Source: Candidatus Altimarinota bacterium
Lineage (GTDB): Bacteria > Patescibacteriota > Gracilibacteria > UM-FILTER-43-11
NCBI GenBank assembly: GCA_028281045.1
Contig: JANQKP010000009.1
Coordinates: 129,673-193,672, forward strand
Direction: 5' to 3'
DNA: 64,000 bases
This document shows positions 40,067 through 62,600 of the stretch, piece after piece; within the stretch, counting starts at the first letter, position 1; each line of letters opens with the position of its first letter. The position numbers and the translations under genes are program-made. The notes below the pieces were generated by a model that searched no databases, was not told the origin of the DNA, and saw only the letters and a list, made by a program, of their open reading frames with translations.

Positions 40067-40558
40067 CTAACGCTTAATGCTGATATCTGGAGCAACACCT
40101 CCTCCACCAGCTCCTTCGCCTTCGGCGTCACAAGCAATGACTTTTACAGTTCCTTCATCTTCCAAATGTAGGGCATAGCCCGTAGTAGTAGCACTACCCG
40201 TTTTAGGATCCTCTGGAACCGTAGCTAAATAGTTAGCTCCAAGCCCTGATAAATCTACACAGGCATCTTCTGTAGAGTCTCCTGCACAATCTCGGTCACA
40301 ACCTGTTCCGGCAGTTCCAATTTGCCAAATATCACCATCGTTCACGGCCGCTACATTAGCGTGATAATCTCCGTTGTTATCTGCTTGGTGCTTCTTAATT
40401 GCATCTAGAATCGTAGAAACATCACTAGAGCGTCTTGCATTTCTAGTTTCATGCAAACGACGCGCTGGATCTATGGCTACAAAGATAGCCCCAGCTAAAA
40501 TCGCCACGATAGCAATGACAATAATAAGTTCTACAAGGGTGAATCCTTTTCTATTCAT
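40067..40558 (-). CDS. type IV pilin-like protein (major-pilin paralog 1)
   Basis: Prepilin leader MNRKG|FTLVELIIVIAIVAILAG. Conserved C-terminal CDAEGEGAGGGG…ISIKR. Confidence 0.88.
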   Translation of the reverse strand: MNRKGFTLVELIIVIAIVAILAGAIFVAIDPARRLHETRNARRSSDVSTILDAIKKHQADNNGDYHANVAAVNDGDIWQIGTAGTGCDRDCAGDSTEDACVDLSGLGANYLATVPEDPKTGSATTTGYALHLEDEGTVKVIACDAEGEGAGGGGVAPDISIKR

Positions 40559-40563
40559 TTTTA

Positions 40564-41049
40564 TTAACGAGTTACTTTAATTTCCGGAGGAGCGCCAGAT
40601 CCACCGGCACCTTCTCCTTCAGGATCACAAGCGTAAACTGAAACAGAGCCTGATTCTAGGCTAATCATATAGCCCGTCATGGCTGCTGTACCTGTCTTAG
40701 GATCCTGAGGAACAGTAGCTAAGTAATTAGCTCCGATAGAAGTTAAATCAACACAGCTTGGATCTGCTGTTTGATTAGCACATTCAACATCACAGCTGCC
40801 CACTTGGGTTCCAATAACGTAAAAATCACCCTCGGTAAGTGACTGAATAGCAGAATAATGATCTCCGTTATTATCCACTTGGTATTTACGAATGGCATCT
40901 AAAATAGTCACCACATCGCTAGACCTTCTGGCGTTACGGGTTTCGTGTAAACGACGCGCTGGGTCTATAGCCACAAAAATCGCTCCGGCCAGAATAGCAA
41001 CAATAGCAATCACAATGATGAGCTCAACAAGCGTAAAACCTTTTTTCAT
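40564..41049 (-). CDS. type IV pilin-like protein (major-pilin paralog 2)
   Basis: MKKG|FTLVELIIVIAIVAILAG. The first ~55 mature residues are nearly identical to paralog 1. C-terminal CDPEGEGAGGSGAPPEIKVTR. Confidence 0.88.
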   Translation of the reverse strand: MKKGFTLVELIIVIAIVAILAGAIFVAIDPARRLHETRNARRSSDVVTILDAIRKYQVDNNGDHYSAIQSLTEGDFYVIGTQVGSCDVECANQTADPSCVDLTSIGANYLATVPQDPKTGTAAMTGYMISLESGSVSVYACDPEGEGAGGSGAPPEIKVTR

Positions 41050-41106
41050 TTATTTTTGTGTACTTTAAAAGTCACCGTGAATTATACACTAGTTCCCAGT
41101 GAAACA

Positions 41107-41613
41107 CTAACGTACAGCTTTAATTTCCGGTGGAGTTCCAGTTCCCCCTGCCCCCTCACCTTCTGTTTCACAGGCATAAACGGTGATTCCATTGTTTTCA
41201 TCTTTTTTCAGGTAGTAGCCTGTTTCAAGATCGGTTCCAATCAGGGGATCTAGCGGAACAATAGGCAGGTAATTACTTCCAATATCTTCAAGGTCTACAC
41301 AATTAGTGATCGTGTCATGATTGTCACAAGTTTTAGCACAACCCACTCCATTGGTTCCAATCATGTAGTATTTATTGGCGTCTAAATCATCAATTTCAGT
41401 GTAATGATTCCCCGCATTATCCGCTTGGTATTTTTTAATTGCATCTACAAGCGTATTTACATCGTTTTTACGAATCGAATTACGCGATTCGTGTAAACGA
41501 CGCGCTGGATCTACGGCTACAAAAATAGCCCCAGCTAAAATCGCAATAATGGCAATCACAATAATCAATTCAACGAGGGTAAATCCTTTAATTTTTTGGA
41601 GTATTTTTTTCAC
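41107..41613 (-). CDS. type IV pilin-like protein (major-pilin paralog 3)
   Basis: MKKILQKIKG|FTLVELIIVIAIIAILAG. C-terminal CETEGEGAGGTGTPPEIKAVR. Confidence 0.88.
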   Translation of the reverse strand: MKKILQKIKGFTLVELIIVIAIIAILAGAIFVAVDPARRLHESRNSIRKNDVNTLVDAIKKYQADNAGNHYTEIDDLDANKYYMIGTNGVGCAKTCDNHDTITNCVDLEDIGSNYLPIVPLDPLIGTDLETGYYLKKDENNGITVYACETEGEGAGGTGTPPEIKAVR

Positions 41614-41631
41614 CTTTCTATTATATAAAGA

Positions 41632-42006
41632 TTAATTGTTAAAATCTAGAATTAAAAACGGATCCAGCTGCACATTCACGTCAAAATCATGCACAAAGTC
41701 ACCTTCAGAGGCTTCAATTTGAATATCTCTTTCTGGGGCTCCAGAAATACTAATAACACAACTAGCACCGTCTACATTTAGCGTTTCACCAGTATAACCA
41801 TTATCTCTTTTAAGCTGAATTAAAGCTTCCTCAAGACAACCTTCAGCTTTTAGATAAAGCTGCTCAGATTCAAGAATATGAAACGTATTCGCACGGCTAG
41901 AAACCCCTGCAAGAGCAATGGTTAAAGCAATAATACTAATCACTGCCCCCAGAATAATAACGGAAGTCAGTGCAATCGCCCCATGATGTGCTTTAAATAA
42001 TTTCAT
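41632..42006 (-). CDS. PilX-like minor pilus protein (N-terminal TM, no G|F site)
   Basis: 124 aa with HGAIALTSVIILGAVISIIALTIALAG. Sits in the minor-pilin block, and its start overlaps the upstream stop. Confidence 0.6.
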   Translation of the reverse strand: MKLFKAHHGAIALTSVIILGAVISIIALTIALAGVSSRANTFHILESEQLYLKAEGCLEEALIQLKRDNGYTGETLNVDGASCVISISGAPERDIQIEASEGDFVHDFDVNVQLDPFLILDFNN

Positions 42007-42575
42007 TAGTTTTCTTGGCGAACGTTATAAGTAGACTTTGAGCTTAAGCTCGCATTAAAATCTTCGTCTGTATTTGTGCTCACAGCTTCAATCGTTAGCT
42101 CAATTTGCACAGAATCCGGCCCCGAAGCAGCGGTTTTATTCGTAATGACAAAATTCGTCACATCCACATGGTCTGAAGTCACGTCGTAACTATTAAATCC
42201 TTCAGTCATTCTTAATTTACGAATGCTAATTTCTTCATCACCTAAGGTGACGTTCTTGGTGTAGGTATCAAATTCGGTATCTAAAGCATTATCCACCGTC
42301 AGTGTTCCAGGATGAGATAGGAACGTAGAAGCACCCTCATCTACCGTATTAGAATTGCGCACTGTGTCTTTCATAAGCTCCATCGCTTGAGCCATATTCA
42401 CTTTCACTTCACGGTTTAATCTAGTTCTGCTTTCTGTGATTTGAACTTGCCAGAAAAGCTGCACAATAAGTGAAAGTACCACGGCAAAGATTCCGACATA
42501 AAGGATCATTTCAACGAGCGTAAACCCCTGTGTTTTTTTCAAAAAGGTTTTCATTCTATGGCCAATCCGAGGCAT
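42006..42575 (-). CDS. minor (pseudo)pilin, prepilin-type N-terminus
   Basis: 189 aa with …KKTQG|FTLVEMILYVGIFAVVLS. Confidence 0.75.
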   Translation of the reverse strand: MPRIGHRMKTFLKKTQGFTLVEMILYVGIFAVVLSLIVQLFWQVQITESRTRLNREVKVNMAQAMELMKDTVRNSNTVDEGASTFLSHPGTLTVDNALDTEFDTYTKNVTLGDEEISIRKLRMTEGFNSYDVTSDHVDVTNFVITNKTAASGPDSVQIELTIEAVSTNTDEDFNASLSSKSTYNVRQEN

Positions 42576-43050
42576 TTGCGTAGTTATGAATATAGGTTTT
42601 TAATTCCAAAGTGCGGTCTACATCTTCAAAAGGAGACCAAGAAATAGTAATGGTCACTTCTTTAGAATCTGGGTCATTCGTTCCACCAGAAGTCACAATA
42701 TCTCCAAAGGCGTCTCGCTGCACATTAGCAACATTAATCACGCGAGTAATACCTTCGTATGTATCTGAAGCTCCTGAAAAGCTCCAAGCGCCAGAGCCAG
42801 AGGCAAGCCCATGATCTCCGTTCGTGATATTGGCCCAATCGTTACTACGAATCGATTTAACCGCTTCAAAGCTTTCGGTTAAAAGATGGCTAGCCTGCAT
42901 ACGTTTCTGATCTTCATGAACAGAAAGCGGACTACCCACAGCTAAAATCGCCAGGCCTCCGGCAATAATCATAAATAGGGCCACGGCAATCACCAGTTCA
43001 ATAAGAGTAAATCCCTGTGATGTCGTTTTCTTAGTACGAATAATCGACAA
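42556..43050 (-). CDS. minor (pseudo)pilin, prepilin-type N-terminus
   Basis: 164 aa with …TTSQG|FTLIELVIAVALFMIIAGG. It overlaps its neighbours by 20 nt on each side. Confidence 0.75.
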   Translation of the reverse strand: MSIIRTKKTTSQGFTLIELVIAVALFMIIAGGLAILAVGSPLSVHEDQKRMQASHLLTESFEAVKSIRSNDWANITNGDHGLASGSGAWSFSGASDTYEGITRVINVANVQRDAFGDIVTSGGTNDPDSKEVTITISWSPFEDVDRTLELKTYIHNYANASDWP

Positions 43051-43519
43051 GGCCTAGTAAATTAACAGAAATAGCAAAGGTTCCATCTCCTTCTATGTTA
43101 GAGCTCAGGCTGAAAGAACCGTGCTGGTTATTTATTCCTGTTTCTTGGGTAAAAATCATTTCATCTCCTCCACCATTTAGGCTAAGAGAATCAATAGAAA
43201 GCGAAGTTGGCAAAACAATCTGACGATCATAATCCGTGTCTCTAGAAATAAAACTAGCTCCTTTAAACAGGGTATAAGTATTAGGACTAGAAGCATCATC
43301 GAATTTAATGCCCCAAGGCGCATCAAGACGCTGTGAAATCGCATTACGATGAGCTTCACGCATGGTTTCTACCATTTGAATCCCATGATTCTTTACATTT
43401 TGCTTACCGAAAACGTTTCCAATCGCTACCAGCGTTCCAGCAAATAAAATAGAAAGAATAATGATCACTATAATCATTTCTACTAAGGTAAATCCCTTTG
43501 GTTTTATAGCAGAAAACAT
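43031..43519 (-). CDS. minor pilin, GspH/FimT-like
   Basis: 162 aa with …KPKG|FTLVEMIIVIIILSILFAG and a FimT/GspH-like HRNAISQR…YTLFKG segment. Confidence 0.7.
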   Translation of the reverse strand: MFSAIKPKGFTLVEMIIVIIILSILFAGTLVAIGNVFGKQNVKNHGIQMVETMREAHRNAISQRLDAPWGIKFDDASSPNTYTLFKGASFISRDTDYDRQIVLPTSLSIDSLSLNGGGDEMIFTQETGINNQHGSFSLSSNIEGDGTFAISVNLLGLVDYSY

Positions 43520-44595
43520 TAGCGAATATTACCAGTAATAGAGTAAATAGGCCCAAGAATGGAAATAGCTACAAATCCTACAAGTAGGCCTACAAAAATC
43601 AGCAGTATAGGCTCTAGACTCGTCGATAAATTCTTCATTTGGTGATCGGTTTCTTCTTCGAGATAATCTCCAATATATCCGAAAGAAGATTCTAGACCCC
43701 CTGTGTTTTCTCCAAGGGCTAGCATTTTCACAAAAAGATCATCAAAAAGCAGTGGATATTTTTTAATCGCTTCCCCAAGTTGTGATCCTTTTTTAACTAG
43801 AGGAATAATGTCGCGAATCGCATTTTGATAATAGTGATTCGTGATCACATCAGAAGAAATTTCTAGACCCTCATCAATAGGAATTCCACTTCCCAGTAAA
43901 GACTCTAACGTGCGACTAAAACGAGCCATCATGATCTTTCTGTATAAAGATCCCATAAGCGGCATCTTAAGCTGCATGTAATGCGTCACAGGACGTGAAA
44001 ACTTTCTATGGGCCACCCAAACAAGAGCAATCACAGTAAAAATAAAGCCCCAGAACACTTGTCTTCCATAATTTTCAAAGAGCTCTGCAAAGAAAAGAAG
44101 CACTTGAGTTGAAACAGGCAGGTCTATATCTAAGCTTCTAAATAGTGGGAGCAGGTTTGGAAGAATAAAAATCGCTACAGATAGTCCAAGACCAACCACG
44201 GCAATTAAAACAAAGGTTGGATAAGTCATAGCAGACCTCACCTTAAGCTTAAATTCTCTTTCCTTATCCATAATCGTAAAAAGCCTTCCAAGACTTTCTT
44301 CAAGAGATCCAGAAAGCTCACCGGTTTTGATTAGATTCACAAAAAGCGGTGAGAAATATTTCGGATAAAGCGCAAAAGATTCATAAAGGTAGCTCCCTTT
44401 TCTTACATTCTCTGAAATACTTTCTAAAACTTGTTTTAATCTACCTTTAGCCTGCTCTCTAGCAAGATCTAAAGAGTCTGCCACGCCATAACCGGCGCGG
44501 ATTCCAGCATAAAGTTGGCGCACTAGAATTAGGCGGTCCTTGGTAGATACTCCGCCAATAACAATCTCTTTGTTTTTCCAGTTTGTTTTGGCCAT
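43519..44595 (-). CDS. pilC: type IV pilus / T2SS platform protein (GspF/PilC family)
   Basis: Duplicated GspF-type domains and three TM segments. I chose ATG 44595 (MAKTNWKNKEI…), 1 nt after the pilB stop, over the ORF-track start at 44646, which overlaps pilB by 50 nt. Confidence 0.88.
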   Translation of the reverse strand: MAKTNWKNKEIVIGGVSTKDRLILVRQLYAGIRAGYGVADSLDLAREQAKGRLKQVLESISENVRKGSYLYESFALYPKYFSPLFVNLIKTGELSGSLEESLGRLFTIMDKEREFKLKVRSAMTYPTFVLIAVVGLGLSVAIFILPNLLPLFRSLDIDLPVSTQVLLFFAELFENYGRQVFWGFIFTVIALVWVAHRKFSRPVTHYMQLKMPLMGSLYRKIMMARFSRTLESLLGSGIPIDEGLEISSDVITNHYYQNAIRDIIPLVKKGSQLGEAIKKYPLLFDDLFVKMLALGENTGGLESSFGYIGDYLEEETDHQMKNLSTSLEPILLIFVGLLVGFVAISILGPIYSITGNIR

Positions 44596-44596
44596 T

Positions 44597-46489
44597 TTAT
44601 TGATTAAGAACACGGAAGAGCTCGTCGATTGTAGTTGATCCAGCAATCACTTTCTTAAGTCCATCTTCAAGCATTTGAGTCATTCCATTTTTAAGCGCTG
44701 CTGCTTCAATATCAGATTGTTTTGCCGCAGAGGTGATCAGATTTCTAATCTCATCATTAAGCTCCATCACTTCAGCCACCACAGTTCTTCCACGGTAACC
44801 AGTGTGACCACATTTAGTGCAGCCCTTTCCTTTGAAAAGACGCATTTCAGCCCCTTCTGCAAAATAGTTCTCAAACAGGGCCTTCTCCTGGTCTCCATGA
44901 AGGAATTTAGCTTTAAATTCTTTGATATCTTTCTTTGGAAGCTTATAGCTCACCTTACAATCGCTACAAATTTTACGCACAAGGCGCTGAGCCACAATAA
45001 GGTTAAGCGTTGAAACAATCAGGTAAGGATCTAGCCCCATTTGTGCTAGGCGCACTGGTGCTAGCGCTGCATTATTCGTATGTAGCGTGCTAAATACCAC
45101 ATGCCCTGTAAGTGAGGCATGTACTGCAATCTTAGCCGTGTCTAAATTACGAATCTCACCCACCATCAGTACGTCCGGATCTTGGCGAAGCAGAGATTTA
45201 AGCCCATCGGCATAAGTTAAATTTGTTTTAGGATTCACTTGAATCTGATTCAGTCCTTTAAGCCCATATTCAATTGGATCTTCAATAGTAGATATATTAA
45301 TCGCATCAGATTGCAGATCTTTAAGCACGGCATAAAGTGTGGTGGTTTTACCACTACCGGTTGGACCGGTCACTAGAATAAGTCCGTTGGTCTTATTCAT
45401 ATTACGCTCAATAAGTTCACGATCTTTAAAATCGTAACCTAGTTCTTCTAGTGTCAGCTCTTGAGTTTCTGAAGTTAAAAGACGAAGTACAATTTTTTCT
45501 CCGTTGTACGTTGGCAGAATAGAAACACGGAAGTTAATTACCGTTGCTCCATAAGTGATTTTAAAGCGGCCATCTTGGGCGCTGCTATGCTCATCTGTTC
45601 TCAGCTTAGAAAGCACTTTCACATGGTTAACTAGTGTTTCTAAGAATGAAACAGGGAGTGAGGTGATTACAGAAAGTACCCCATCCACTCTAAAACGTAC
45701 TAGAATCTCATCTTCAAAAGGTTCTACATGGATATCTGAAGCATTACGGGTATAAGCCATAAGCACCAGTGTATCGAAAATCGTAGAGATGCTGTTGAGC
45801 GAAGAAAGATTCTGAATATTCTGAGAGGCCTTTTCAATCAGGTGATCCACACTTTCATCAGCCTTTTGCTTATAAATTCTAAGGGCTTTTCTTACATCTT
45901 CTGGGGTGGTGTAATTCACCACAGTTTTCTTACCTAGTTTTTCTTCTATTTTCTTAATGAATTTTTCATCCGCTGGATTCACCATGGCAAGATGCACTTC
46001 GGTGTCTGTTGCCTCATAACTAATCACGCCAGCTTCTTTAGCTACTTTTTCATCGATCAGAAGAATGGTATCTAGAGGCACCTTAGCACTTTTAAGCGGC
46101 ACATAAGTGGTTCTAAAGTAAACCGCAATGGCTTGCCCTACTTCTTTAGGTTTTAGGTAGTTTTTTGCCACAATAATATCTGCAATATTATTCCCCGTTT
46201 TCATATGCTCTTCAATCACGGTAGCTACAGACTCATCGTCTAAAAGCCCCAGCTTTTTAAGATGCGTTAAGATCTTCTTATTGAGCGCCTCATCGTAGCT
46301 AGACATTTCTTCTTCGAAATGACGCACGATGAATCGTCCAATTTTACCGGTTTCTTCTAGCTCAGGAGCTTTTTCTTCAGTGGTTTTTTCCACTTTAGCC
46401 TCCTTGGAAGTAGCTTCCTCAGACAGCTTTTTTTCCTCCTCTTTTTGAGCTTTATCTTTAGTGATTTTTTTCTTGGCGAATTTAGCCAT
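44597..46489 (-). CDS. pilB: type IV pilus assembly ATPase (GspE/PilB family)
   Basis: Walker A GPTGSGKTTT, DPDVLMVGEIRN, His box STLHTN, and a CxxC…CxxC Zn motif. GspE_N-like N-domain preceded by a K/E-rich extension of about 55 aa. Confidence 0.93.
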   Translation of the reverse strand: MAKFAKKKITKDKAQKEEEKKLSEEATSKEAKVEKTTEEKAPELEETGKIGRFIVRHFEEEMSSYDEALNKKILTHLKKLGLLDDESVATVIEEHMKTGNNIADIIVAKNYLKPKEVGQAIAVYFRTTYVPLKSAKVPLDTILLIDEKVAKEAGVISYEATDTEVHLAMVNPADEKFIKKIEEKLGKKTVVNYTTPEDVRKALRIYKQKADESVDHLIEKASQNIQNLSSLNSISTIFDTLVLMAYTRNASDIHVEPFEDEILVRFRVDGVLSVITSLPVSFLETLVNHVKVLSKLRTDEHSSAQDGRFKITYGATVINFRVSILPTYNGEKIVLRLLTSETQELTLEELGYDFKDRELIERNMNKTNGLILVTGPTGSGKTTTLYAVLKDLQSDAINISTIEDPIEYGLKGLNQIQVNPKTNLTYADGLKSLLRQDPDVLMVGEIRNLDTAKIAVHASLTGHVVFSTLHTNNAALAPVRLAQMGLDPYLIVSTLNLIVAQRLVRKICSDCKVSYKLPKKDIKEFKAKFLHGDQEKALFENYFAEGAEMRLFKGKGCTKCGHTGYRGRTVVAEVMELNDEIRNLITSAAKQSDIEAAALKNGMTQMLEDGLKKVIAGSTTIDELFRVLNQ

Positions 46490-46524: not shown

Positions 46525-46573
46525 AAAAAACGCCCAAAAATAAAGGGTTTTTAGCTAGTAAAAGCCAAAAAGC

Positions 46574-46945
46574 TTATTTTCCTAAAAATTCGTGAACAAC
46601 GCGCTTGAGCTCTTCAAGAGTAACGTTAGATTTTTCAAAGAAATCTACAGCTCCTAGGGCAATAACATCTTCTTTTCTAAACTCTTTAGGAAAGTTGGTG
46701 TATACCATGACAGGAGTCTTGTTTTTCTCTTCTTTAAGCCGTTGAAGCACTTCTGTGCCTAGTAAAATAGGCATTTGAAGATCTAAAATAACAAGGTCAA
46801 AAGCGTTTTCTCTAATTAAATCTAGAGTTTTTTGACCATCGCTAGCTTCAGTCACTTCAAAACCTTCTTCTTTAAAGCACTGGCCAATAATCTGCTTTAA
46901 AAAGGAGTCGTCTTCCGCAATTAAAATTTTATGAGAGGTGGGCAT
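46574..46945 (-). CDS. single-domain CheY-like response regulator
   Basis: 123 aa with the full receiver signature: EDD, LVILDLQMP, T in VYTN, K in FFEKS. Confidence 0.9.
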   Translation of the reverse strand: MPTSHKILIAEDDSFLKQIIGQCFKEEGFEVTEASDGQKTLDLIRENAFDLVILDLQMPILLGTEVLQRLKEEKNKTPVMVYTNFPKEFRKEDVIALGAVDFFEKSNVTLEELKRVVHEFLGK

Positions 46946-46963
46946 GGGGCATGGGTTAAATCA

Positions 46964-47326
46964 CTATTTTACTGTATTTTTTACGATTTCAACTAACTCG
47001 TCAATGGCAACATCAGATTTAATATAAAATCCTTTGGCACCAAGTTTCAGCACTTCTTCTTTGTCTTCTTCTTGAGACAAGTTACTAAATACAAACACAG
47101 GAGTTTTATCCTTTCTTTCTGCTAGCTCTTTTAGAACGGCAAAACCGTCTTTTTTGGGCATAATAAGGTCCAGTAGCACCATGGCGTATTTATTCTTTTC
47201 CATAAGCGCTAGGGCTTCTTCACCATCGTTCGCTTGATCTACTTCAAAACCTTCTTCTTTTAATCTATTTGAAGAGATTTTTACTAGGAACGGGTCGTCT
47301 TCTGTGATCAGAATTTTTTTAGACAT
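46964..47326 (-). CDS. single-domain CheY-like response regulator
   Basis: 120 aa with TEDD, MVLLDLIMP, FSN and YIKS receiver residues. Confidence 0.9.
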   Translation of the reverse strand: MSKKILITEDDPFLVKISSNRLKEEGFEVDQANDGEEALALMEKNKYAMVLLDLIMPKKDGFAVLKELAERKDKTPVFVFSNLSQEEDKEEVLKLGAKGFYIKSDVAIDELVEIVKNTVK

Positions 47327-47348
47327 TGGTTTTTAATTTAAATGATAA

Positions 47349-50273
47349 TTAACTGATTTTATGTTGAATGATTTTCTTGTTTCCAGACTTTTTAACTGGT
47401 CCTTTGAGGGGCAGAGTAACAACAAAGGTGCTTCCTTTCCCCTCTTCTGATTCTACACTAATATTTCCATGACAAACATGGAGAATTTTCTTGATGATAT
47501 AGAGTCCAAGCCCAGAGCCGGTCGTAGAGTACTTAGCGGCTTCAGCCGTTCTATAGAACTTCGTGAAGAGTTTCTTTTGATCGTCTTTAGAAATACCAAT
47601 CCCCTGGTCCATAAAGCGCATTTCAACGCCTTTAGGCTTAGAAAGGAGCTCAACGGTCACCTTAGTATTTGGATTACTGTACTTGATTGCATTCGAAACT
47701 AGATTCGCAATCACTTGGCCTATCAGCTGTTGATCTAAACTGATATTAATCTTCTTTTTAGGTACTTTTACAGTGAGCGTTTGCCCCCTATCTTTCGCCA
47801 GAATATTAGCTTCTTGCACGATTTCTTTAATAAGAGCTGGTAAATCGGTAGGCTCAGAAGTCACATCAATAGCCCCTGTTTCCAGGCGTGAAACATTAAG
47901 TAAATCATTCACAAGTTGAATCATACGATGATTCGATTTAAGTGCATCTTCAATGTACTCCTTGTCGTCTTTCTTAAGTTTTCCACGACGAAGCACCTCT
48001 TCAAGAAGCCATTTGATCCCCGTAGATGGGGTACGAAGCTGATGCGAAGCCAGGGAAACGAACTCGCTCTTCGCCTGATCGATCTCTCTTTCCTTGGTGA
48101 TGTCATGGAAAATTGCAATCGCTCCCAGACACGTTTTGCCATGCATAATAGGGGTCGCCGTTACGTCTATGTAAACCTTCACATCTTTAGAGATATAGGC
48201 AATAGGCTTTCTTACTTTTTTCTTCTCTTTAAGGGCTCTATTAATAGGCCAATTCTTAGGCGGAACTGGGTTTCCTTTTAGGTCTTCAACACGTCCTTGC
48301 TCAGATTCTACATGTTTTTCCATTTGAGATTCTTTAATGTTGAACCACTTAAGAATCTCCTGCCCTGAAGGATTGGTGAAGATAATATCTCCCTTGGCGT
48401 CTATGGCTACAATCCCTTCACCCATGTTGTTCAAAATAGCCTCAAGCTTAATTTTTTCCTGGTCTACAAGTGCTTTGGATTTAGTAATATTACGATTACT
48501 TTTTTGTAGCTCTGCCGCGGAAGCTTTAAGATCATCTGCTTTTTGTTTATTTTCTGCAATCAAGGCTTGCAGATTATCTGCCATAAGATCTGTAGCCACC
48601 AGTAGATCTGTAAATTCATCTTCTTCATCTGGAAGCTCTAGGCGCTTAGTGAAATCTCCTAAAGATAAGCTGTGAAGCACCGGAGTAATGGTATCTACCC
48701 TAGTCTTCGCATATTTTTTAAGCACACTCAGGTCATTGATTACGGCTAAGAATCCTACTAGTTCACCGTTTTCATCTTGCAACTTAGCCCCCGTACATTG
48801 AACAGGAATCTTGGTTCCTTTTCTGGTGATGTCTAATGACAATGTTTTACGCCCCTTAGATTGGAATTTTTCCATAAGCACACACTCGTGGTGCTTATCT
48901 CCCTTGTACCGCTTGGTGAGATAGCGACACAAGTGTTTTTCTGCGAGCTGTTTCTTACTTATATCCAGCAGGTCATAAGTCGCTTGATTCGCCGAAATAA
49001 CGGCCCCTGTTTTATCCATTACAATAATAGACTCTGGTACCGTTTCATAAATATTTTCAATCTCGCGAAGCGATGAGGTGAGTTTATCAGCCATATCATT
49101 AAAGGCCTTCGCAAATTCTCCAATTTCATCATTGCTATCTATTCTAGCTCTTTTACTGAGCTTACCTCTTTTAATATCCCTCACCGTACCAGAAAGCCGA
49201 TCAATAGGCCTGGTGAAGAAGCGGGCAAACCAGAATACGAACATAATGGTCACTCCTATCATCACCAAGGCAAAAACCACTACAATTTGGCGTAAAATAA
49301 GAAAGGCTTCTCTGAAAAGATCCTTTGGTACAAAGCGGAAGAGTACCCAGTAGCGATCAGGATCATCTTGATCATACCGAATAGGAATAGAGTAGCTAAT
49401 ATTTCCGTTGGCCTCTGTTACTGTAAGCTCTTTCCCAAAATCAACGTCCTGGAAACCTTCATAGTCAGCTCTAAATTGCTCTCCTGTATTTAAATCAGAG
49501 CTTCCTCCCCATCTTTTTTCCTCTTCAGGGTGAAACAAATAATAACCATCCTGATCAACCAGTAGGGATTCAACCCTGGTCCCAAAAAAAGCATCTCCAA
49601 AAATATCAAATAAGGCTTCCGCATTCACATTAGAAATCACAGCCCCTTTTCTGTTGCCATCCTTATCAAAAATAGGCGCCGCCAATCTAATCATGGGTCT
49701 AATAGGCTGCACAATTTGAGGTGGGCTGCCTTCTTTATTAAGATCTACAGGCGAAATATAAATATTGTCATATTCATGCGTCATCGCCTCCTGAAAATAG
49801 TAGCGTTCCTTTTTATTTTGGAGGTTTTCTTTGGCCACCCTTTCTACAACCCCATTTTTGCTATTTATACGCACTACCTCAAAGCCATTCTCATCAATAT
49901 ATCTAAGCTGAGCGTATTGCGGATGCACCGCCATAAAGCCACTAAAGGCTTCATTAATGCGTTCTATAATGGTTTCTCGATCTACTTCAAAACCAGGAAC
50001 AGTACCTGTTGATTCATCGTAGTTAATCAGGGCTACAACGCCCGGTAATCTAGATATAAAGCGAATTTCTGACTTGAGCTCAAAAAGAAAGAGCTCAATA
50101 CGCATTTCATCCGATCTCAAATTTTCTTCAGCTTCAGCAATCTCATGCTCTACCAGGGCATCTGAAGCGGTTACCATCATCAGCCTAAGACCTGCCCCAA
50201 AAACAATTACGAAAAATATAGCTAGAGTCAGCATTAATTTTTCCCTAATTTTTAGGTGCTTAAATATGCTCAA
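47349..50273 (-). CDS. sensor histidine kinase (TM - dCache-like - TM - HAMP - PAS - HAMP-like - PAS - HisKA - HATPase)
   Basis: 974 aa. H-box SHQLRTPSTG. N/G boxes (NLVSNAIKYS, DQGIGI, GSGLGLYI). HAMP (FTRPIDRLSGTVRDIKRGKL…DEIGEFAKAFNDMADKL). Cache-like periplasmic segment. Confidence 0.92.
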   Translation of the reverse strand: MSIFKHLKIREKLMLTLAIFFVIVFGAGLRLMMVTASDALVEHEIAEAEENLRSDEMRIELFLFELKSEIRFISRLPGVVALINYDESTGTVPGFEVDRETIIERINEAFSGFMAVHPQYAQLRYIDENGFEVVRINSKNGVVERVAKENLQNKKERYYFQEAMTHEYDNIYISPVDLNKEGSPPQIVQPIRPMIRLAAPIFDKDGNRKGAVISNVNAEALFDIFGDAFFGTRVESLLVDQDGYYLFHPEEEKRWGGSSDLNTGEQFRADYEGFQDVDFGKELTVTEANGNISYSIPIRYDQDDPDRYWVLFRFVPKDLFREAFLILRQIVVVFALVMIGVTIMFVFWFARFFTRPIDRLSGTVRDIKRGKLSKRARIDSNDEIGEFAKAFNDMADKLTSSLREIENIYETVPESIIVMDKTGAVISANQATYDLLDISKKQLAEKHLCRYLTKRYKGDKHHECVLMEKFQSKGRKTLSLDITRKGTKIPVQCTGAKLQDENGELVGFLAVINDLSVLKKYAKTRVDTITPVLHSLSLGDFTKRLELPDEEDEFTDLLVATDLMADNLQALIAENKQKADDLKASAAELQKSNRNITKSKALVDQEKIKLEAILNNMGEGIVAIDAKGDIIFTNPSGQEILKWFNIKESQMEKHVESEQGRVEDLKGNPVPPKNWPINRALKEKKKVRKPIAYISKDVKVYIDVTATPIMHGKTCLGAIAIFHDITKEREIDQAKSEFVSLASHQLRTPSTGIKWLLEEVLRRGKLKKDDKEYIEDALKSNHRMIQLVNDLLNVSRLETGAIDVTSEPTDLPALIKEIVQEANILAKDRGQTLTVKVPKKKINISLDQQLIGQVIANLVSNAIKYSNPNTKVTVELLSKPKGVEMRFMDQGIGISKDDQKKLFTKFYRTAEAAKYSTTGSGLGLYIIKKILHVCHGNISVESEEGKGSTFVVTLPLKGPVKKSGNKKIIQHKIS

Positions 50274-50274
50274 A

Positions 50275-51570
50275 TTAAGAATTATTATTTTCTAGCTTTC
50301 TAATTTTTTGTTGAAGAAGATCTATTTCTTTTTCCATGGCCTTCATTTTCTTATGACGCTTCAGATTCAAGCGTCCCATGAACTCCATTTGTTCTACCTT
50401 GTCTTGCAAGGCCCTTTCAGCAATTCTACGCCCTGTAATGTCATGCAAAATAGAGCGTGTTCTAACAAAATTACCGTCTTGGTCGTAAGCGGCCACAGAG
50501 TCTATTTCTACTTCTATTTTTTCTCCTGTTTTTGTCACTACATGACCATGAGGAATATAAATAGCTCCTTCTTTCTTGAGTTTTTCAAAGCCTTTTTTAA
50601 CATCTTTTATAAGCTCAGGTGCATATAGCTTAAACACATCCATGCCAATGAGCTCATCTTCTGTGTAACCCAGCATTTCTATAGATTTACGGTTCACAAA
50701 TAGAATGCGCCCTTTAGCGTCCACAGAGTGAATCATATCGGGAGAGTTTTCTACGATGTCTTTATATCTCGCCTCAGAACCGGTCACTTGTTTTAGGGTT
50801 TCAATCTGATCTGTGATATCCACCAAAATACCCACATAGTGAGTCACTTTTCCGGCATCATTTTTCACAGGTGAAATAGTGAGATCATTCCAAAAAGAGG
50901 TTCCATCTTTTTTGTAGTTATAAAGCTGCAATTTTATAGGCTCCCCTTTTTTAATAGCTTCGCCAATAAGCTTGGCAGAGTCTCCATTAGTGTGTTTACC
51001 CTGTAAAAATCTACAATTTTTACCAAGGACTTCTTCTTTGGTGTAACCCGTAATCTCCGTAAAGGCATCATTACTGTAAATAATAGGATTATCTTTTTGC
51101 TCAGCATCTGTAATAATAATCCCACTCGTTACTGTATCTAAGGCACGCCCCTTAAGCATAAGTTGCTCACTAATTTCAGACATTTCAGTCACATCATGCA
51201 CGATGCTCCGTGTTCTAATGAAGTGATGATTTTTATCGTAAATGGCAATGGAGTCTATTTGCACTTCAATAACGTCTCCATTTCTCTTTAGCATTTTTCC
51301 ATGAGATACATGTAGCTCCCCTTTTTTCTTAAGCACTTTAAACCCCTTTTCCACTTCCTTATACAGCTCTGGAGCATAGATGTCTTTAAGATGTTTCCCA
51401 ATGATCTCAGACCTCTTGTAGCCTAAAACCTTACATTCCTTTTTATTGGCGTAAACAATAAAACCCTTATCATCCACGGAATGAATCATGTCCGGAGAGT
51501 TTTCTACAATGTCTTTATAGCTTTCTCCAAGGTCGAAATCATCTTTTTTATTTTGCATTTTTTTGGCCAT
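50275..51570 (-). CDS. PAS-LOV-PAS photosensor-like protein with C-terminal coiled coil, no output domain
   Basis: The central domain carries GKNCRFLQG with FMN-pocket Asn residues. The flanking PAS domains are duplicates (YKDIVENSPDMIHSVD… occurs twice). I prefer ATG 51570 (MAKKMQNKK…). The ORF-track start at 51591 is a TTG lying at or upstream of the predicted TSS. The stop is 1 nt from the kinase start. Confidence 0.88.
   Translation of the reverse strand: MAKKMQNKKDDFDLGESYKDIVENSPDMIHSVDDKGFIVYANKKECKVLGYKRSEIIGKHLKDIYAPELYKEVEKGFKVLKKKGELHVSHGKMLKRNGDVIEVQIDSIAIYDKNHHFIRTRSIVHDVTEMSEISEQLMLKGRALDTVTSGIIITDAEQKDNPIIYSNDAFTEITGYTKEEVLGKNCRFLQGKHTNGDSAKLIGEAIKKGEPIKLQLYNYKKDGTSFWNDLTISPVKNDAGKVTHYVGILVDITDQIETLKQVTGSEARYKDIVENSPDMIHSVDAKGRILFVNRKSIEMLGYTEDELIGMDVFKLYAPELIKDVKKGFEKLKKEGAIYIPHGHVVTKTGEKIEVEIDSVAAYDQDGNFVRTRSILHDITGRRIAERALQDKVEQMEFMGRLNLKRHKKMKAMEKEIDLLQQKIRKLENNNS
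50806..51144 (-). other. LOV domain (domain-level call)
   Basis: GIIITDAEQKDNPIIYSNDAFTEITGYTKEEVLGKNCRFLQGKHTNGDSAKLIGEAIKKGEPIKLQLYNYKKDGTSFWNDLTISPVKNDAGKVTHYVGILVDIT. The Cys codon is at 51013-51015. Confidence 0.85.
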
Positions 51571-51596
51571 AATATTTTTATTTTTATGCAAGTTTT

Positions 51597-51647: not shown

Positions 51648-52757
51648 CTATTGCTCAGTGCCTCCAACTTGCCCCAAAATCTCACGGGCTCTTTCTTTAA
51701 TATGCTTAGCAATAGGTTGGGTAGCGTTGTTAGCCTCCCAAGCTTCAGTGGCTTTATTTATAGCGTCGTTCGCTTTAGCCTCAGCTTCGTCGTACTTTCT
51801 TTGAATTCCTAGAATAAAGCTATCTACAAGCCAGTCGTAGGCGCGGGCAAGTTTAGCTGCCCCTAGTACTACGTTATTCGTTGGCATGTTCTTATAAGCT
51901 TGTTGTGTAAGGTCTACGGCTAGCTCTGAAGCTTTCTTGGAAAGCAGAATCTTATTCGCCGCTACATACACTTCAATCTGAGCCATTTCAGCTTCAGCCC
52001 TATCTAAAAGGAACTGTGTATTTTGTCCGTTTCTAATTAGGGCCAGAATATAAAGCACATCGGCTACTTCAGAACGAGTCATAGCCTTGCTTGGATTCAG
52101 TTTATTTTCATGATCTGGAGCCACTAGCCCAAGCTGAGCTGCATAGTACATATAAGGTCTAAACCAGGCCTCTTGGGACACATCTGCATAATCGCCCTCA
52201 ACAGCTTCAATGGCATTAGGATCAATGCGGTTTGCTAGAAGGAGCATCTTAAGAAGCTCTGCCTTATTCACTTGGCGCCCAGGAGCAAAAGAACCATCGG
52301 CATTTCCTGTAATCACAGAAAGTCTTTTGGCTTTTTTAACGTATTTAGCAAACCAGGCATCTTGAGGCACATCTCCAAAACCTGTTGCATCTTGATCTTC
52401 ATCAATTTCAATTCCAGAACCAGCAAGAATCACCTTAAGTACTTCTGCACGGTTAATAGAGTTATCTGGCCCAAAAGTTCCATCTCCATAACCATTCAGT
52501 ACACCAGCTTGGCTTAAGTAAGTTACCGCTGTGTAATGTGGATGGCTGCGTGGCACATCAGAAAATCCGGTCACCACTTTCATTCCAGAGTCCGTTATTG
52601 CCTCATCGGCAAATGCATGAGAAAAAGCAAAGAAAGAGCTAAACACAATTAGCGCTGATACGAGCCGAGTTCCCCATGATGATAGTTTTAAATCTCCCAC
52701 TTGTTTATTTTTTATTTTTGCAGGCCCTATTCTAGCATGCAAAGGTAAAAAATGCAA
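51648..52757 (-). CDS. S-layer-homology (3x SLH) domain protein with helical C-terminal domain
   Basis: Signal peptide (…FFAFSHAFA). Three SLH repeats (FSDVPRSHPHYTAVTYLSQAGVLNGYGDGTFGPDNSINRAEVLKVIL; FGDVPQDAWFAKYV…; YADVSQEAWFRPYM…). Confidence 0.85.
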   Translation of the reverse strand: MHFLPLHARIGPAKIKNKQVGDLKLSSWGTRLVSALIVFSSFFAFSHAFADEAITDSGMKVVTGFSDVPRSHPHYTAVTYLSQAGVLNGYGDGTFGPDNSINRAEVLKVILAGSGIEIDEDQDATGFGDVPQDAWFAKYVKKAKRLSVITGNADGSFAPGRQVNKAELLKMLLLANRIDPNAIEAVEGDYADVSQEAWFRPYMYYAAQLGLVAPDHENKLNPSKAMTRSEVADVLYILALIRNGQNTQFLLDRAEAEMAQIEVYVAANKILLSKKASELAVDLTQQAYKNMPTNNVVLGAAKLARAYDWLVDSFILGIQRKYDEAEAKANDAINKATEAWEANNATQPIAKHIKERAREILGQVGGTEQ

Positions 52758-52759: not shown

Positions 52760-53122
52760 TTAATCCTTCTTCGAAGCCGCCTCTTCTACAATGACAAGCA
52801 GGTCAGAAAATTTAAAAGGTTTTTCTACGTAAGAAAAAATCTGATTATTCACTAGAGCATCTTTGATTTTTTCATTTTGAATACCGGTAATCACAATAAT
52901 TGGAGTCTTCATGTTCCACTTCTCAGCCTGAAGAATAAGCTTATCTCCTCTAAGCTCAGGCAGACTAATATCTACAACCGCTGCGTCATACTTATTGTTA
53001 ATAAGCATTGAAAGCCCATCCACACCAGAGGTTGCGGTTTCGCAGGTAAATCCATTTTCCGTAAAATCTGCAACGAGCTGCTCCACTAACTCTTCGTTGT
53101 CATCCACAATAAGTAATTTCAT
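52760..53122 (-). CDS. single-domain CheY-like response regulator
   Basis: 120 aa with VDDN, AVVDISLP, VITG and VEKPF receiver residues. Confidence 0.9.
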   Translation of the reverse strand: MKLLIVDDNEELVEQLVADFTENGFTCETATSGVDGLSMLINNKYDAAVVDISLPELRGDKLILQAEKWNMKTPIIVITGIQNEKIKDALVNNQIFSYVEKPFKFSDLLVIVEEAASKKD

Positions 53123-53227
53123 ATGTTTGTTATTTTAAAGGTTGTTGGTTTTTTTAAACCTAATGCACAAAAAAGCAAAAGTCAAACACCAATAACAAAT
53201 CGATAATAATTTGATAATAACCTGGTC

Positions 53228-53920
53228 TTAATTGTGCTCAGAGCCTGTGCGCAAGATGTAACCAATACCGTGAACGGTCTCAATCAGCTTGTCTTCTTTT
53301 TTAAGATCTAGCTTTTTTCTCAGGATAGAAACATGTGAATCTACTGTGTTAGAAATCACTCTAGAATCATAGTCCCACACCCTTTCAATCAGGGTAGATC
53401 TGGGAATCACCTGGTCAGCGTGCTTCACTAAGTAATGAAGTAAGTCATACTCCTTCATACGAAGTTTAATTTCTTTCCCTGCCTTAGAAACAGAGCGGGT
53501 TTTAGGTTTAATACATATGTCTTTAATCACAATATCACTTTGAGAAGTGTCTTTTGTCTTTTTTCCTCTCCTGAGTAAGGCATTAATACGCACATTTAAT
53601 TCTACGAAAGAGAAAGGTTTAGAAAGGTAATCATCGGCCCCCATATTCAGTAGTTTTACCTTGGAGTCTAGGTCACTTAGAGCAGTGAGCACAATCACAG
53701 GCAAATCAATACCTCTGTCTTTATATTGGCTTAAAACTTCTGCCCCATTGAGATCAGGCAAGATTAAGTCTAAAACAATGACGCTATGTAAATTTTCATC
53801 AATTTTATCTAGCGCTTCTTGGCCGGTGGCTGCATGGGTGACTTGGTGACCCTCGCCTTGAAAACCTTTGATTAAAAATTGGGCTAACTCGTGATCATCT
53901 TCAACTAAAAAGATATTCAT
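53228..53920 (-). CDS. OmpR/PhoB-family response regulator (REC + winged helix)
   Basis: MNIFLVEDDHE…VIVLDLILPD…SKPF, followed by the winged-helix segment LRMKEYDLLHYLVKHADQVIPRSTLIERVWDYD…VHGIGYIL. The ORF-track start at 53944 adds 8 unlikely residues. Confidence 0.9.
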   Translation of the reverse strand: MNIFLVEDDHELAQFLIKGFQGEGHQVTHAATGQEALDKIDENLHSVIVLDLILPDLNGAEVLSQYKDRGIDLPVIVLTALSDLDSKVKLLNMGADDYLSKPFSFVELNVRINALLRRGKKTKDTSQSDIVIKDICIKPKTRSVSKAGKEIKLRMKEYDLLHYLVKHADQVIPRSTLIERVWDYDSRVISNTVDSHVSILRKKLDLKKEDKLIETVHGIGYILRTGSEHN

Positions 53921-59660: not shown

Positions 59661-62600
59661 CTAGCTCTCCATATCAAGCATTTTTTCTTTATGCTTGCGA
59701 CCAGCTGGAATAAGTTTACCGATAATAACGTTTTCTTTAAGTCCTTTCAGGTTATCTACACGGTTTGTAGTCGCTGCTTCTACAAGAACTCTAATGGTTT
59801 CTTGGAATGAAGCCGCAGATAGCCATGAATCGGTAGAAATCGCTACTCTAGAGATTCCAAGAAGGAGTCTATCGGCTTTAGCTTCTTCTTTTCCTTTCTT
59901 CTTAAGCTCTTCGTTTACTTGGTGGAATTTACCAACGGTAACGCTTTCACCAGGCAGGAAGTCACTTGCTCCAGGAAGAGTGATCTTCACACGTGAGAAC
60001 ATCTGTTTAATGATGATCTCAATGTGTTTTTCATTAATCGTTTGTCCTTGAGAAGCGTAGATGTGTTGTACTTCGTTCATGATGTACTTCTGAGTCGTTT
60101 GTACATCAGTCAGTTCCATCAGCTGTTGAAGGTTGATGTGACCAGAGTTTAGAGCCTGACCACGAGTCACCATGTCGTTATTCGAGATGTTGATTCTTTC
60201 ACGTGGACCAAAGTGGTATTCACGAACACGCTTTTCAGTGTGTTTTAGGGTGATCATACCTGGCTCAATGCTGTGCACTTTACCTTCTTCAGTTGCTTTA
60301 ACAGTGGTTTTTTCAGTCTTAGAACGAGCAATGATTTGCTTAGGCTTAATCTTCTCGTTCTTCTTAACCACTACTTCAAAGTCTAGAGGAATGTGGTAAG
60401 AATCTGTTTCTAGTTCTTGAGCGTGAATTGTTACATCAATTCCTTCTTTATTGCTCTTCACAGTCGCTTTTCCAGGAATTTCAGCTAGAACAGCGGGGCG
60501 TTTAGGGCTACGTGCCTCAAACAGCTCTTCTACACGTGTAAGACCTTGTGTAATATCAGCTCCTTCCGCTACTCCACCCATATGGAACGTACGCATCGTA
60601 AGCTGTGTACCTGGTTCACCAATCGATTGAGCCGCAATAATACCAACGGCTGTACCTAGGTCTACAATTTCGTTCGATCCAAGGTCACGTCCGTAAGCTT
60701 TTGGTGCAATACCATCGGTCATAGAACCCATGATTGAGTAGATTTCTACTTCGTCTACACCTGCTTCGTCTACGTCTTTTGCAACGTGAGCATCGATTTC
60801 TTGATCTTTTTTAAGAATAACCTTACCAGTTTTAGGATGTTTAACCGCTTTAGCAGCTACACGTCCGTAAAGACGATCTGCAAGGGTTTGATTGATCTTA
60901 ATACTGTCTTCTCTAGTAATAAGGTGAGTTGCATCCGGCGTATCATCGTTGATGATGATCACATCTTGTACAGCGTCTACTAGACGACGTGTTAGGTAAC
61001 CCGCTTCCGCTGTCTTAAGCGCCGTATCAGATTTACCTTTACGTCCACCATGCGTTGCAATGAAGTACTCTAGAATCGAGAATCCTCCTTTAAGATTAGA
61101 CTTAATTGGAAGTTCAATCGTACGTCCAGACGGATTCGCTACAAGACCTTTCATCCCACAAAGCTGTGTGATTTGTCCCCAGTTACCACGGGCACCAGAA
61201 TCGATCATGTAATTGATGTGATTTTCAGGTTCTTCTTTGAACTTATCGATCATCTTATTGGTCACATCGCTCTTAAGCGCAGACCATAGTTTGATCGCAT
61301 GCGTATATCTTTCATCTTCTGTGATCCATCCTTTCCAGTATTGGTTGTTGATCTTACGAACCACTTCATCCGCTTCTTGAATCATTTCGTCTCTTCCATC
61401 TGGATCAATCATGTCAGCTACAGAGATAGAAAGACCAGATTTAGTACCGAATTTGAATCCAATACGTTTCAGGTCATCTGCAAATACTGCTGTGCGTTCT
61501 TGTCCACATTTTTCTAGAGACTCTGTCAGAAGATCTCTAAGAGATCCTTTCTTGATAGTGTAGTTCACGTAGTCTAGCTCTTCTGGAACGAAGCTGTTTA
61601 GAATCAGACGACCTACGGTAGTCTCAACAATTTCTCCATTAACACGAGCTTTAATTTTCGCGTGAATATCTACAAAGTTTTGACGGTAAGCATTAATTGC
61701 TTCATCAATATCAGAGAAAGCCATTCCTTCTCCTGTTTTACCTTCTAACATGTTGGTTAGGAAGTACACTCCAAGTACCATATCTTGAGTAGGAGTAACA
61801 ATCGGTTCTCCAGAACTTGGTTTAAGAAGATTATTTACAGAGTGAATAAGGTCTTTCGCTTCACTTTGAGATTGCTCAGAAAGTGGAAGATGAACCGCCA
61901 TTTGATCCCCATCGAAATCGGCATTGAAGGCCGCACAAACAAGTGGGTGAATTTGAATCGCTTTCCCTTCAATCAGTACCGGTTGGAACCCTTGGATCCC
62001 AAGTCTATGAAGTGTTGGTGCACGATTCAGAAGCACTAGGCGTCCTTGAATTTGTTCCTCAAGAATATCCCATACTTCTTTTTTAGAAGCTTCAATAAGT
62101 CTTTCAGCTCCTTTTACGTTATGAGCTAGTTCAGAGCGAATAAGTTCTCCAATTACAAATGGTTTGAATAGTTTCAGAGCCATTTCTTTCGGAAGACCAC
62201 ATTCTCCAAGTTTAAGTTGAGGACCAACTACAATTACAGAACGTCCAGAGTAATCTACACGTTTACCAAGTAGATTTTGACGGAAACGACCTTGCTTCCC
62301 TTTAAGCATGTCAGAAAGTGAGCGTAGTTTACGTTTTTCACCAGCAGTGAATACAGCTTTACCAGCACGGGTAGAGTTATTAAACAGAATATCTACCGCT
62401 TCTTGAAGCATACGTTTTTCATTACGACAGATTACTTCAGGAGCCCCAATCGCCATAAGACGTTTAAGACGGTTATTACGGTTAATAACACGACGGTATA
62501 GATCATTAAGATCTGAAGCGGCAAAACGTCCACCATCTAGTTGTACCATCGGACGTAGATCCGGTGGAATAACTGGTAGCTCTTTCACCACCATGAATTC

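Follow-up and report, generated by a model that had tools for sequence, protein, structure and literature searches.

A predicted glutamine-deficient LOV protein encoded beside a histidine kinase gene in a Patescibacteria contig

The PAS-LOV-PAS gene and its flavin pocket

We analysed a 64,000-nucleotide (nt) stretch of contig JANQKP010000009.1 (assembly GCA_028281045.1, Candidatus Altimarinota bacterium, positions 129,673 to 193,672); this whole stretch is called the window below. Its minus strand carries a gene, immediately upstream of a sensor histidine kinase gene, whose product places a LOV domain between two PAS domains. The LOV domain is predicted to be a flavin-binding photosensor of the glutamine-deficient (LOV-deltaQ) kind. 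The features of the gene are listed here with residue numbers taken from the 438-residue open reading frame (ORF); the numbering of the gene-caller product, P0001, is the ORF number minus 11. FMN is flavin mononucleotide.

50275..51558, minus strand: coding sequence of the PAS-LOV-PAS protein, 427 amino acids (aa) from the ATG of Met12
51187..51522, minus strand: PAS1, of the 'PASx' type, ORF residues 24-135 (YKDIVENSPDMIHSVD...TRSIVHDVT); Pfam PAS at 25-124
50806..51144, minus strand: LOV domain, ORF residues 150-262, from Pfam, phmmer, NCBIfam and AlphaFold/Foldseek
51013..51015, minus strand: codon of Cys193 in GKNCRFLQG, the predicted flavin C4a adduct-forming Cys, equivalent to YtvA C62
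50962..50964, minus strand: Gly210 codon (GGC) at the FMN-phosphate Arg position (YtvA R79 / AsLOV2 R467)
50824..50826, minus strand: Leu256 codon (TTG) at the active-site Gln position (YtvA Q123 / AsLOV2 Q513)
50422..50769, minus strand: PAS3, the second PASx copy, ORF residues 275-390
50281..50436, minus strand: C-terminal helix, ORF residues 386-437 (375-426 in P0001), one 52-residue helix by AlphaFold
50323-50400, minus strand: conserved motif KVEQMEFMGRLNLKRHKKMKAMEKEI inside the C-terminal helix
51610..51634, minus strand: terminator-like hairpin separating the SLH and LOV genes, with a stem of 11 pairs and a T run after it

The ORF (50275..51591, minus strand) gives 438 aa when counted from a TTG. 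The gene caller instead starts P0001 (427 aa) at Met12, with its ATG at 51556-51558, and an alternative ATG (Met8) lies at 51568-51570. Since the TTG at 51591 lies only ~19 nt past the terminator hairpin, translation more probably starts at an internal ATG. That hairpin is strong and resembles an intrinsic terminator; it stands directly after the SLH gene and ~40-50 nt ahead of the ATGs of the LOV gene, and its presence suggests that a separate transcription unit begins at the LOV gene.

AlphaFold (mean pLDDT, the predicted local distance difference test score, of 93.9 for a model built on a 57-sequence alignment) lays the protein out as PAS1, helix, LOV, helix, PAS3 and the 52-residue terminal helix. 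Pfam recognised three PAS stretches (whole-sequence E = 5e-55), and neither Pfam nor NCBIfam found an effector or output domain. There was no HisKA or HATPase match, the kinase being a separate gene, so the protein is not a LOV histidine kinase. The initial annotation, which had been made from the letters alone, described the flanking PAS domains as duplicates of one another, and PAS1 and PAS3 are indeed 56% identical over 111 residues. The best external matches to PAS1 were the PASx domains of three multi-PAS proteins from relatives (P0009, P0007 and P0003, 140-147 bits). In a set of ~15 billion proteins, the protein as a whole represents its own cluster at 50% identity. With the LOV domain alone, 2,450 proteins matched at E <= 1e-30 in a search of 1.84 billion representatives, a ranking dominated by giant multi-PAS proteins; a LOV-only word search returned 88 candidates, all of them short proteins at <=56% identity and none named as belonging to the candidate phyla radiation (CPR).

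The identity of the LOV domain was examined by sequence and by structure. The peptide at residues 150-262, its GxNCRFLQG hallmark and the adduct Cys codon had been read exactly by the initial annotation: GKNCRFLQG occupies residues 190-198 (NCRFLQG from residue 192) and YVGILVDIT starts at residue 252. Pfam PAS_9 spans residues 157-261, the best of the three PAS stretches. When phmmer was run against all Protein Data Bank (PDB) sequences, LOV domains alone stood at the top, led by the Meiothermus LOV 9vf7 (2e-35) and YtvA (2mwg/2pr5, 6e-34 to 3e-33). The NCBIfam YtvA-family model matched residues 149-275 at 3.6e-51, with a score under the model's whole-protein cut-off; the protein is without STAS. 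The motif had been expected to sit within a LOV-type fold, and the structural comparison agreed: by Foldseek, the LOV part of the model superposed on LOV crystal structures with target-normalised TM-scores (TMt) of 0.91-0.96 and root mean square deviations of 0.7-1.2 A. By structure, 9vf7 gave a TMt of 0.93-0.95 (~1.0 A), CrPhotLOV1 0.96 (0.7-0.9 A) and the Brucella LOV 0.90-0.95. The domain is thus almost certainly a true LOV homolog.

Bacillus subtilis YtvA serves as a reference for the pocket. Its LOV domain (2PR5/2PR6/2MWG) is ~47% identical to that of the window by Foldseek and 52% by BLASTP, with E 6e-34 and a TMt of 0.91-0.92. The two share the GKNCRFLQGKHT motif, and Asn225 and Asn235 fall opposite N94 and N104 of YtvA in the alignment, which bears out the pocket Asn residues picked out by eye. 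They differ in that YtvA has Q123, R79 and a C-terminal STAS output into the stressosome, whereas the window protein has Leu256, Gly210 and, in place of STAS, a PAS domain and a conserved helix. The phmmer alignment pairs YVGILVDIT with YtvA FVGIQNDIT, so Leu256 corresponds to Gln123, as initially proposed.

To place each pocket residue in a wider context, 99 close homologs with the N-C-R motif were aligned and every position tabulated, and a more heterogeneous set of 319 NCR-motif domains was compiled; both sets were seeded with the query, which may inflate the Leu frequency. N192, C193, R194, F195, L196, Q197, N225, N235 and G254 are all consensus, each 98-100% conserved among the 99 homologs. 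These include the contacts to the flavin ring and ribityl chain, N192, Q197, N225 and N235 (YtvA N61, Q66, N94 and N104). About 20 flavin-contact positions were mapped onto AsLOV2 numbering, and 18 of them are consensus or conservative. For the two Arg residues that contact the FMN phosphate (YtvA R63 and R79), R194 is kept and the R79 equivalent is replaced by Gly210. We judge it likely that the protein photocycles.

The Gln-to-Leu change had been presented as a striking anomaly, a description that did not hold up. Position 256 is Gln in 90 of the 99 homologs, Leu in 8 and Ile in 1; among the 319 NCR-motif domains the counts are Gln 261, Leu 30, Ile 3 and Ala 3. Natural LOV-deltaQ proteins have been catalogued (~350), mostly with Leu or Ile and with Leu the commonest replacement (Dietler et al. 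2022, PMC9098866). In the same study the Gln of YF1 was replaced by all 19 other residues and most variants, including Leu, remained light-responsive; NmPAL Q347L gave a 17-fold light response, and AsLOV2 Q513L underwent light-induced structural changes near those of the wild type (PMC9098866). Leu256 therefore puts the domain in a known natural class and, since LOVs with this substitution are known to signal, is no argument against photoreception. As in the published definition of that class, the domain combines LOV homology, an adduct Cys and a conserved pocket with a residue other than Gln at the active site. The natural example tested there carries Met and is a LOV-GGDEF-EAL enzyme of Mesorhizobium (PMC9098866), whereas the window protein has Leu, Gly210, two flanking PAS domains and no enzymatic output. 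The substitution being already explained in the literature, the interest of the gene lies in its host lineage and operon rather than in the Leu.

Gly210, which the initial annotation did not mention, is the rarer deviation. Arg (78) and Lys (14) dominate this position in the 99 homologs, with Gln in 2 and Gly in 1, which is the query itself; the wider set has Arg 224, Val 22, Lys 21, Gln 17, Ser 12 and Gly 6. In YtvA, R79 contacts the FMN phosphate together with R63, yet YtvA-LOV binds riboflavin, FMN and flavin adenine dinucleotide (FAD) at comparable nanomolar affinity, the phosphate being "not necessary" for binding, and its photocycle and dark recovery are ~30% faster with riboflavin (PMC3836802). 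Because the phosphate is dispensable in YtvA, by analogy Gly210 would more likely shift chromophore preference or dark-recovery kinetics than abolish flavin binding. At the codon level, the Leu256 TTG is two base changes from either Gln codon, and the Gly210 GGC is one base from the Arg codon CGC.

We also built a rough neighbour-joining tree, without support values, in which positions 210 and 256 were masked. The window LOV fell on its own long branch, and Leu at the 256 position arose at least four separate times. Inheritance of Leu256 from a Leu-bearing LOV clade is unsupported, as the window LOV lies outside the Leu-bearing flavobacterial clades of this tree.

The two-component locus in the window and in relatives

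Along the minus strand the genes run in the order OmpR-type regulator, single-domain regulator, SLH gene, hairpin, LOV gene, kinase, two CheY-like regulators, PilB-type ATPase, PilC and pilins. The neighbours of the LOV gene are as follows.

51648..52757, minus strand: SLH-domain protein, the upstream neighbour, with three Pfam SLH matches
47349..50234, minus strand: sensor histidine kinase of 961 aa, comprising dCache, HAMP, PAS, coiled coil, PAS, HisKA and HATPase
46574..47326, minus strand: two stand-alone CheY-like response regulators (46964-47326 and 46574-46945)
40067..46489, minus strand: cluster resembling type IV pilus and type II secretion system genes, directly downstream (Pfam T2SSE, MshEN (weak), T2SSF and N_methyl), with several N-methyl pilins
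44597-46489, minus strand: PilB-like ATPase with MshEN
43519-44613, minus strand: PilC-like protein

The gaps are short: 40 nt from the LOV stop to the kinase ATG, 22 from the kinase to the first regulator, 18 between the regulators and 84 to the PilB-type ATPase. No terminator-like site was found after the LOV gene, nor in 46500-47400, and we infer co-transcription through to the pilus genes. In the translations of both regulators an Asp in an LLDL or ILDL context and an N-terminal acidic pair are visible, which we read as a putative phospho-acceptor pocket. The initial annotation was correct that the LOV protein has no effector domain of its own but overlooked the kinase that lies 40 nt downstream in a conserved locus. 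An Rfam scan of the window gave no matches, an FMN riboswitch included.

The host belongs with the Peregrinibacteria by its RNA polymerase subunit. RpoC (59661..63551, minus strand) has best database matches of 69-75% identity, and the named top ones are all "Candidatus Peregrinibacteria bacterium" or "Patescibacteria group bacterium". Named RpoC matches at 60-73% identity are Candidatus Peregrinibacteria. Ribosomal proteins, EF-Tu, EF-G and many large ORFs without Pfam matches are also encoded in the window, whose ORFs are long when read with the standard bacterial code. The possibly episymbiotic lifestyle guessed at the outset is reasonable. Light sensing had been called unexpected in such an organism, which holds in part: RpoC places the gene in a non-phototrophic CPR host, where a LOV domain is unusual, but LOV domains are common in non-phototrophs, as the PDB matches from Bacillus, Brucella, Pseudomonas and Meiothermus illustrate.

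The best full-length homologs (P0002-P0012) are themselves no LOV proteins; they match through PASx (130-147 bits) and the last ~40 residues (E ~1e-10 to 1e-12). We compared the loci that encode such proteins, labelled L082, L083, L085, L089 and L090. In L082 the order is rpoC, S12, S7, SLH, multi-PAS gene, a ~140-aa membrane protein, a dCache/HAMP/PAS kinase (961-965 aa) and two regulators; L083 has the same order from S7 on, and L085 from the multi-PAS gene on. Of two shorter contigs, L089 has a multi-PAS gene, a binding protein and the orthologous kinase, and L090 has SLH, the multi-PAS gene and the ~140-aa membrane protein before its contig ends ahead of any kinase. The SLH protein of the window shares 57-63% identity with the proteins encoded upstream of the multi-PAS genes in L082, L083 and L090, and the window kinase is orthologous, at 35-41% identity, to the kinases beside the motif-bearing multi-PAS genes of L082, L083, L085 and L089. 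The window regulators share 62% and 44% identity with RR1 of L082, and the RpoC of L082 shares 71% with that of the window. A motif-bearing multi-PAS gene lies 0-2 genes upstream of the orthologous kinase in all five loci with enough sequence (the window, L082, L083, L085 and L089). Because the SLH/multi-PAS/kinase/regulator locus is shared with these relatives, the LOV gene of the window is the positional ortholog of their conserved multi-PAS gene.

We define here a Peregrinibacteria multi-PAS co-sensor family by its PASx domain, its C-terminal motif and an adjoining dCache/HAMP/PAS kinase, and the LOV-gene protein has all three. Its positional orthologs (P0003 and P0007, 568 aa; P0009, 319 aa; P0012; P0006) share the locus, PASx and the motif but differ in their variable sensors, which are other PAS types, one of them NifL/MmoS-like. 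The NCRFLQ cysteine was found in none of these five proteins. The PAS at residues 20-140 of P0009 (L083 2345-3304) best matches MmoS (3ewk, 3.5e-19) and NifL PAS1 (2gj3, 6e-16), both of which are known FAD-based redox sensors. P0009 has GKKPSVLKSG where the LOV domain has GKNCRFLQG, yet there is a Gln at its canonical active-site position (IQSDIT), as judged by eye rather than by alignment. Separately, the ~140-aa protein that follows the multi-PAS gene in four of the loci (L082 9713-10132, L083 3423-3848, L085 2521-2943, L090 2624-3055) is hydrophobic and probably membrane-spanning, with no Pfam match.

The end of the protein is the second part that it has in common with the family. A coiled coil had been proposed here; the model predicts one long helix of 52 residues, for which a coiled coil is plausible, with a heptad pattern that is only moderate (hydrophobic at 9 of 16 a/d positions). 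Ten family members, the window protein and nine further multi-PAS proteins, have the motif (K/R)(V/I)xQME(F/L)(M/I)(G/A)RxNLKR(H/Y)xxM in common, and 14 of its columns are invariant. Neither Pfam nor NCBIfam matched it, and a profile run against the PDB gave nothing significant (best E 0.014, to a designed repeat protein). The strong conservation of this sequence points to a specific docking or output element in the helix, and we flag the unannotated motif as worth characterising. Derivation of the helix from a decayed DHp/H-box of a lost kinase was rejected: MAFFT gave no alignment to the H-box of 626-aa flavobacterial PAS-LOV-PAS kinases, the helix His is replaced by Tyr in roughly half the relatives, and the helix is the natural C-terminus in all of them. 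The motif, as KVEQMEFMGRLNLKRHKKM...KEI, also ends a second, larger multi-PAS protein encoded after the regulators (L082 13905-16412, L083 8133-10676), so that in these two relatives each locus has two paralogous proteins with the motif.

The distribution of the two-component cluster is patchy, because three lineages with an RpoC as close or closer are without it at that site: in the closest RpoC relatives (P0122, P0124 and P0127, 72-75% identity) no LOV gene occupies the slot and the whole cluster is missing after S7. GC and GC3 (the value at third codon positions) of the LOV segment do not differ from the values for rpoC and for the remainder of the gene, and with this uniformity a recent horizontal insertion of the segment is unsupported.

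From LOV domain to kinase: proposed route and alternatives

By the route that we propose, blue light would form the Cys193-flavin adduct, and protonation of flavin N5 would be relayed without a Gln side chain, possibly by a transient water standing in for the Gln, as has been proposed for other LOVs with this substitution (PMC9098866). The signal would then travel via the beta-sheet and helical linkers to PAS3 and on to the conserved helix at the C-terminus, through which the cytoplasmic, output-less protein would act in trans on the dCache/HAMP/PAS histidine kinase co-transcribed with it. This would change how phosphate passes to both CheY-like regulators, and the type IV pilus genes downstream might be affected in their activity as well. 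Taken as a whole, a blue-light co-sensor acting on the neighbouring kinase is the reading that we lean towards, if only slightly; for the identity of the partner by itself, the case for the kinase is evenly poised. Output to the pili is a further speculation because these genes follow the regulators in the window only and not in L082 or L083.

The link to a kinase draws on known architectures. The best two-domain structural match of the window protein is the LOV-PAS sensor module of the Brucella LOV histidine kinase (Foldseek, E 5e-22 to 5e-20), which we count in favour of this link. The Brucella abortus LOV-PAS-HK (6PH4, 6PPS, 3T50) has likewise a LOV domain, a helical linker and a PAS domain that feeds a histidine kinase. 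However, its kinase is in the same polypeptide, whereas that of the window is a separate gene with its own dCache, HAMP and PAS, so that coupling would be in trans. The nearest LOV sequences found, at 55-62% identity over the core, belong to flavobacterial 626-aa PAS-LOV-PAS kinases (P0019, P0022, P0029, P0030, P0037, P0042 and others, from Winogradskyella and Lacinutrix). These have the same domain order and some also have Leu at the Gln position, but HisKA and HATPase are fused in cis and the flanking PAS domains are not of the PASx type. A third point of comparison is the LOV proteins that have no output domain. PmSB-LOV is reported to act on LitR (PMC9758184), LdaP of Dinoroseobacter on PpsR (PMC10890935) and a plant PAS/LOV protein (PLP) on GDP-L-galactose phosphorylase (PMC10291033), and such proteins, the Pseudomonas short LOVs included, signal by helical extensions and protein contacts. 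Structures of short LOVs were among the phmmer and Foldseek matches of the window protein. They consist of LOV alone or PAS-LOV, whilst the window LOV lies between duplicated PAS domains, ends in a family-specific helix and has a kinase as candidate partner. With two extra PAS domains and a conserved terminal motif, the window protein is not strictly a 'short' LOV despite having no output domain.

Several observations weigh against a blue-light co-sensor of this kinase. With an extracellular dCache and two PAS sensors of its own, the kinase does not strictly need a partner. The ~140-aa membrane protein of the related loci is absent from the window (no tblastn match). The combination of Gly210 and Leu256 occurs in the query alone among the 319 NCR-motif domains. 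Lastly, the protein has no close homolog that could show purifying selection on Gly210 and Leu256, its best full-length match being 43% identical over 55% of the query.

That unique pair, in which the signalling Gln and the phosphate Arg are both gone, also raises the question of whether the domain is still a light switch. It could instead be LOV-derived but bind flavin weakly, or act in the dark as a sensor of redox state or flavin availability in the manner of the NifL/MmoS-type FAD-PAS domains. CPR bacteria are often sampled from dark habitats, and the positional ortholog P0009 carries a PAS of just this type; LOV domains have moreover been argued to descend from redox-active flavoproteins (Dietler et al., PMC9098866). 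We nonetheless think this unlikely. The adduct Cys and the whole NCRFLQG are intact, and the pocket keeps its two Asn and almost every other residue, whilst NifL-like redox PAS domains, such as that of P0009, are without the adduct Cys; moreover, Gln-to-Leu variants signal, and YtvA binds flavin without need of the phosphate. A different possibility is that the protein is a working blue-light receptor whose C-terminal helix docks onto something other than the kinase: the CheY-like regulators, the PilB-type ATPase or a transcription factor. Effector-less LOVs act on non-kinase partners in the accounts cited above, the pilus genes are close by in the window, and the recurrence of the motif in the protein encoded after the regulators in L082 and L083 means that it is not tied to the slot upstream of the kinase. 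Yet the kinase is the most consistent neighbour across the five loci, the pilus genes are not beside the cluster in L082 or L083, and the conserved core of the locus has no transcription factor; we consider a working receptor with a partner other than the kinase quite improbable. Finally, an assembly chimera, a binning contaminant or sequencing errors at the Leu and Gly codons might be suspected, as the gene comes from a single genome without a close homolog and the Gly codon is a single base from an Arg codon. The gene nevertheless lies within a contiguous run of Peregrinibacteria-type rpoC, S12, S7, SLH, kinase and regulator genes in the order of the relatives, shares PASx domains and the C-terminal motif with them and has unremarkable GC and GC3. 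The protein recurs unchanged in an independent assembly (Logan SRR20820735), and the Leu codon would need two changes to become a Gln codon. An artefact is therefore extremely improbable.

If the favoured reading, a blue-light co-sensor beside its kinase, is true, light would be an input to a Peregrinibacteria two-component pathway beside pilus genes, and some tiny host-dependent bacteria may use light as a cue. The domain would also be a natural case for glutamine-independent LOV signalling, in which the second pocket change could shift chromophore choice or photocycle speed. Within the searches made, the CPR host, the PASx-LOV-PASx-helix architecture and the combination of Leu256 with Gly210 are new. 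Full-text searches of one library, which are not proof of novelty, found no paper that joins LOV with Patescibacteria or the candidate phyla radiation.

A bolder version is that this is the first photoreceptor recognised in CPR/Patescibacteria, and a member of an undescribed family of output-less multi-PAS 'plug-in' co-sensors that offer interchangeable flavin inputs to one kinase and two regulators, with light steering type IV pili. The input would be blue light through LOV in the window and, in the relative with the NifL/MmoS-like PAS, probably redox state. Light would then steer the attachment or motility of a likely episymbiont. We hold this version tentatively and find it rather doubtful in full. 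The family itself, in which different PAS sensors accompany the same PASx, C-terminal helix and kinase neighbour, is a clean natural example of modular sensor exchange; such output-less multi-PAS proteins, in which the sensor is swapped whilst the locus stays the same, may prove the more useful lead.

Other features of the window

In the relatives the SLH gene directly follows S7, and the window has an extra block at this place (52760-58690). The block contains a 700-aa histidine kinase without a recognised sensor domain (56588-58690, plus strand), a 318-aa ORF, an Orn/DAP decarboxylase (54195-55571, plus strand), the OmpR-type regulator (53228-53944, minus strand) and the single-domain regulator (52760-53122, minus strand).

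On a larger scale, the S12-S7-EF-G-EF-Tu run is broken in the window (5738-59171). Some 42 kb separate S7 (~58.7-59.2 kb) from EF-G (13073-15160), an interval filled by the two-component genes, the Orn/DAP decarboxylase, the pilus cluster and many large ORFs, and three ORFs lie between EF-G and EF-Tu. At least nine large ORFs (551-1036 aa) at 15264-21208 (minus strand) and 24256-38508 (plus strand) have no Pfam match at E <= 1e-4, and their neighbour at 21358-23310 has five DUF4215 repeats. Between EF-Tu and EF-G, an 876-aa protein (7415-10045, minus strand) has a Peptidase_S74 domain near its C-terminus. Peptidase_S74 is the intramolecular chaperone of endosialidase and tail-spike proteins, and here it forms a phage-tailspike-like feature amid core ribosomal genes.

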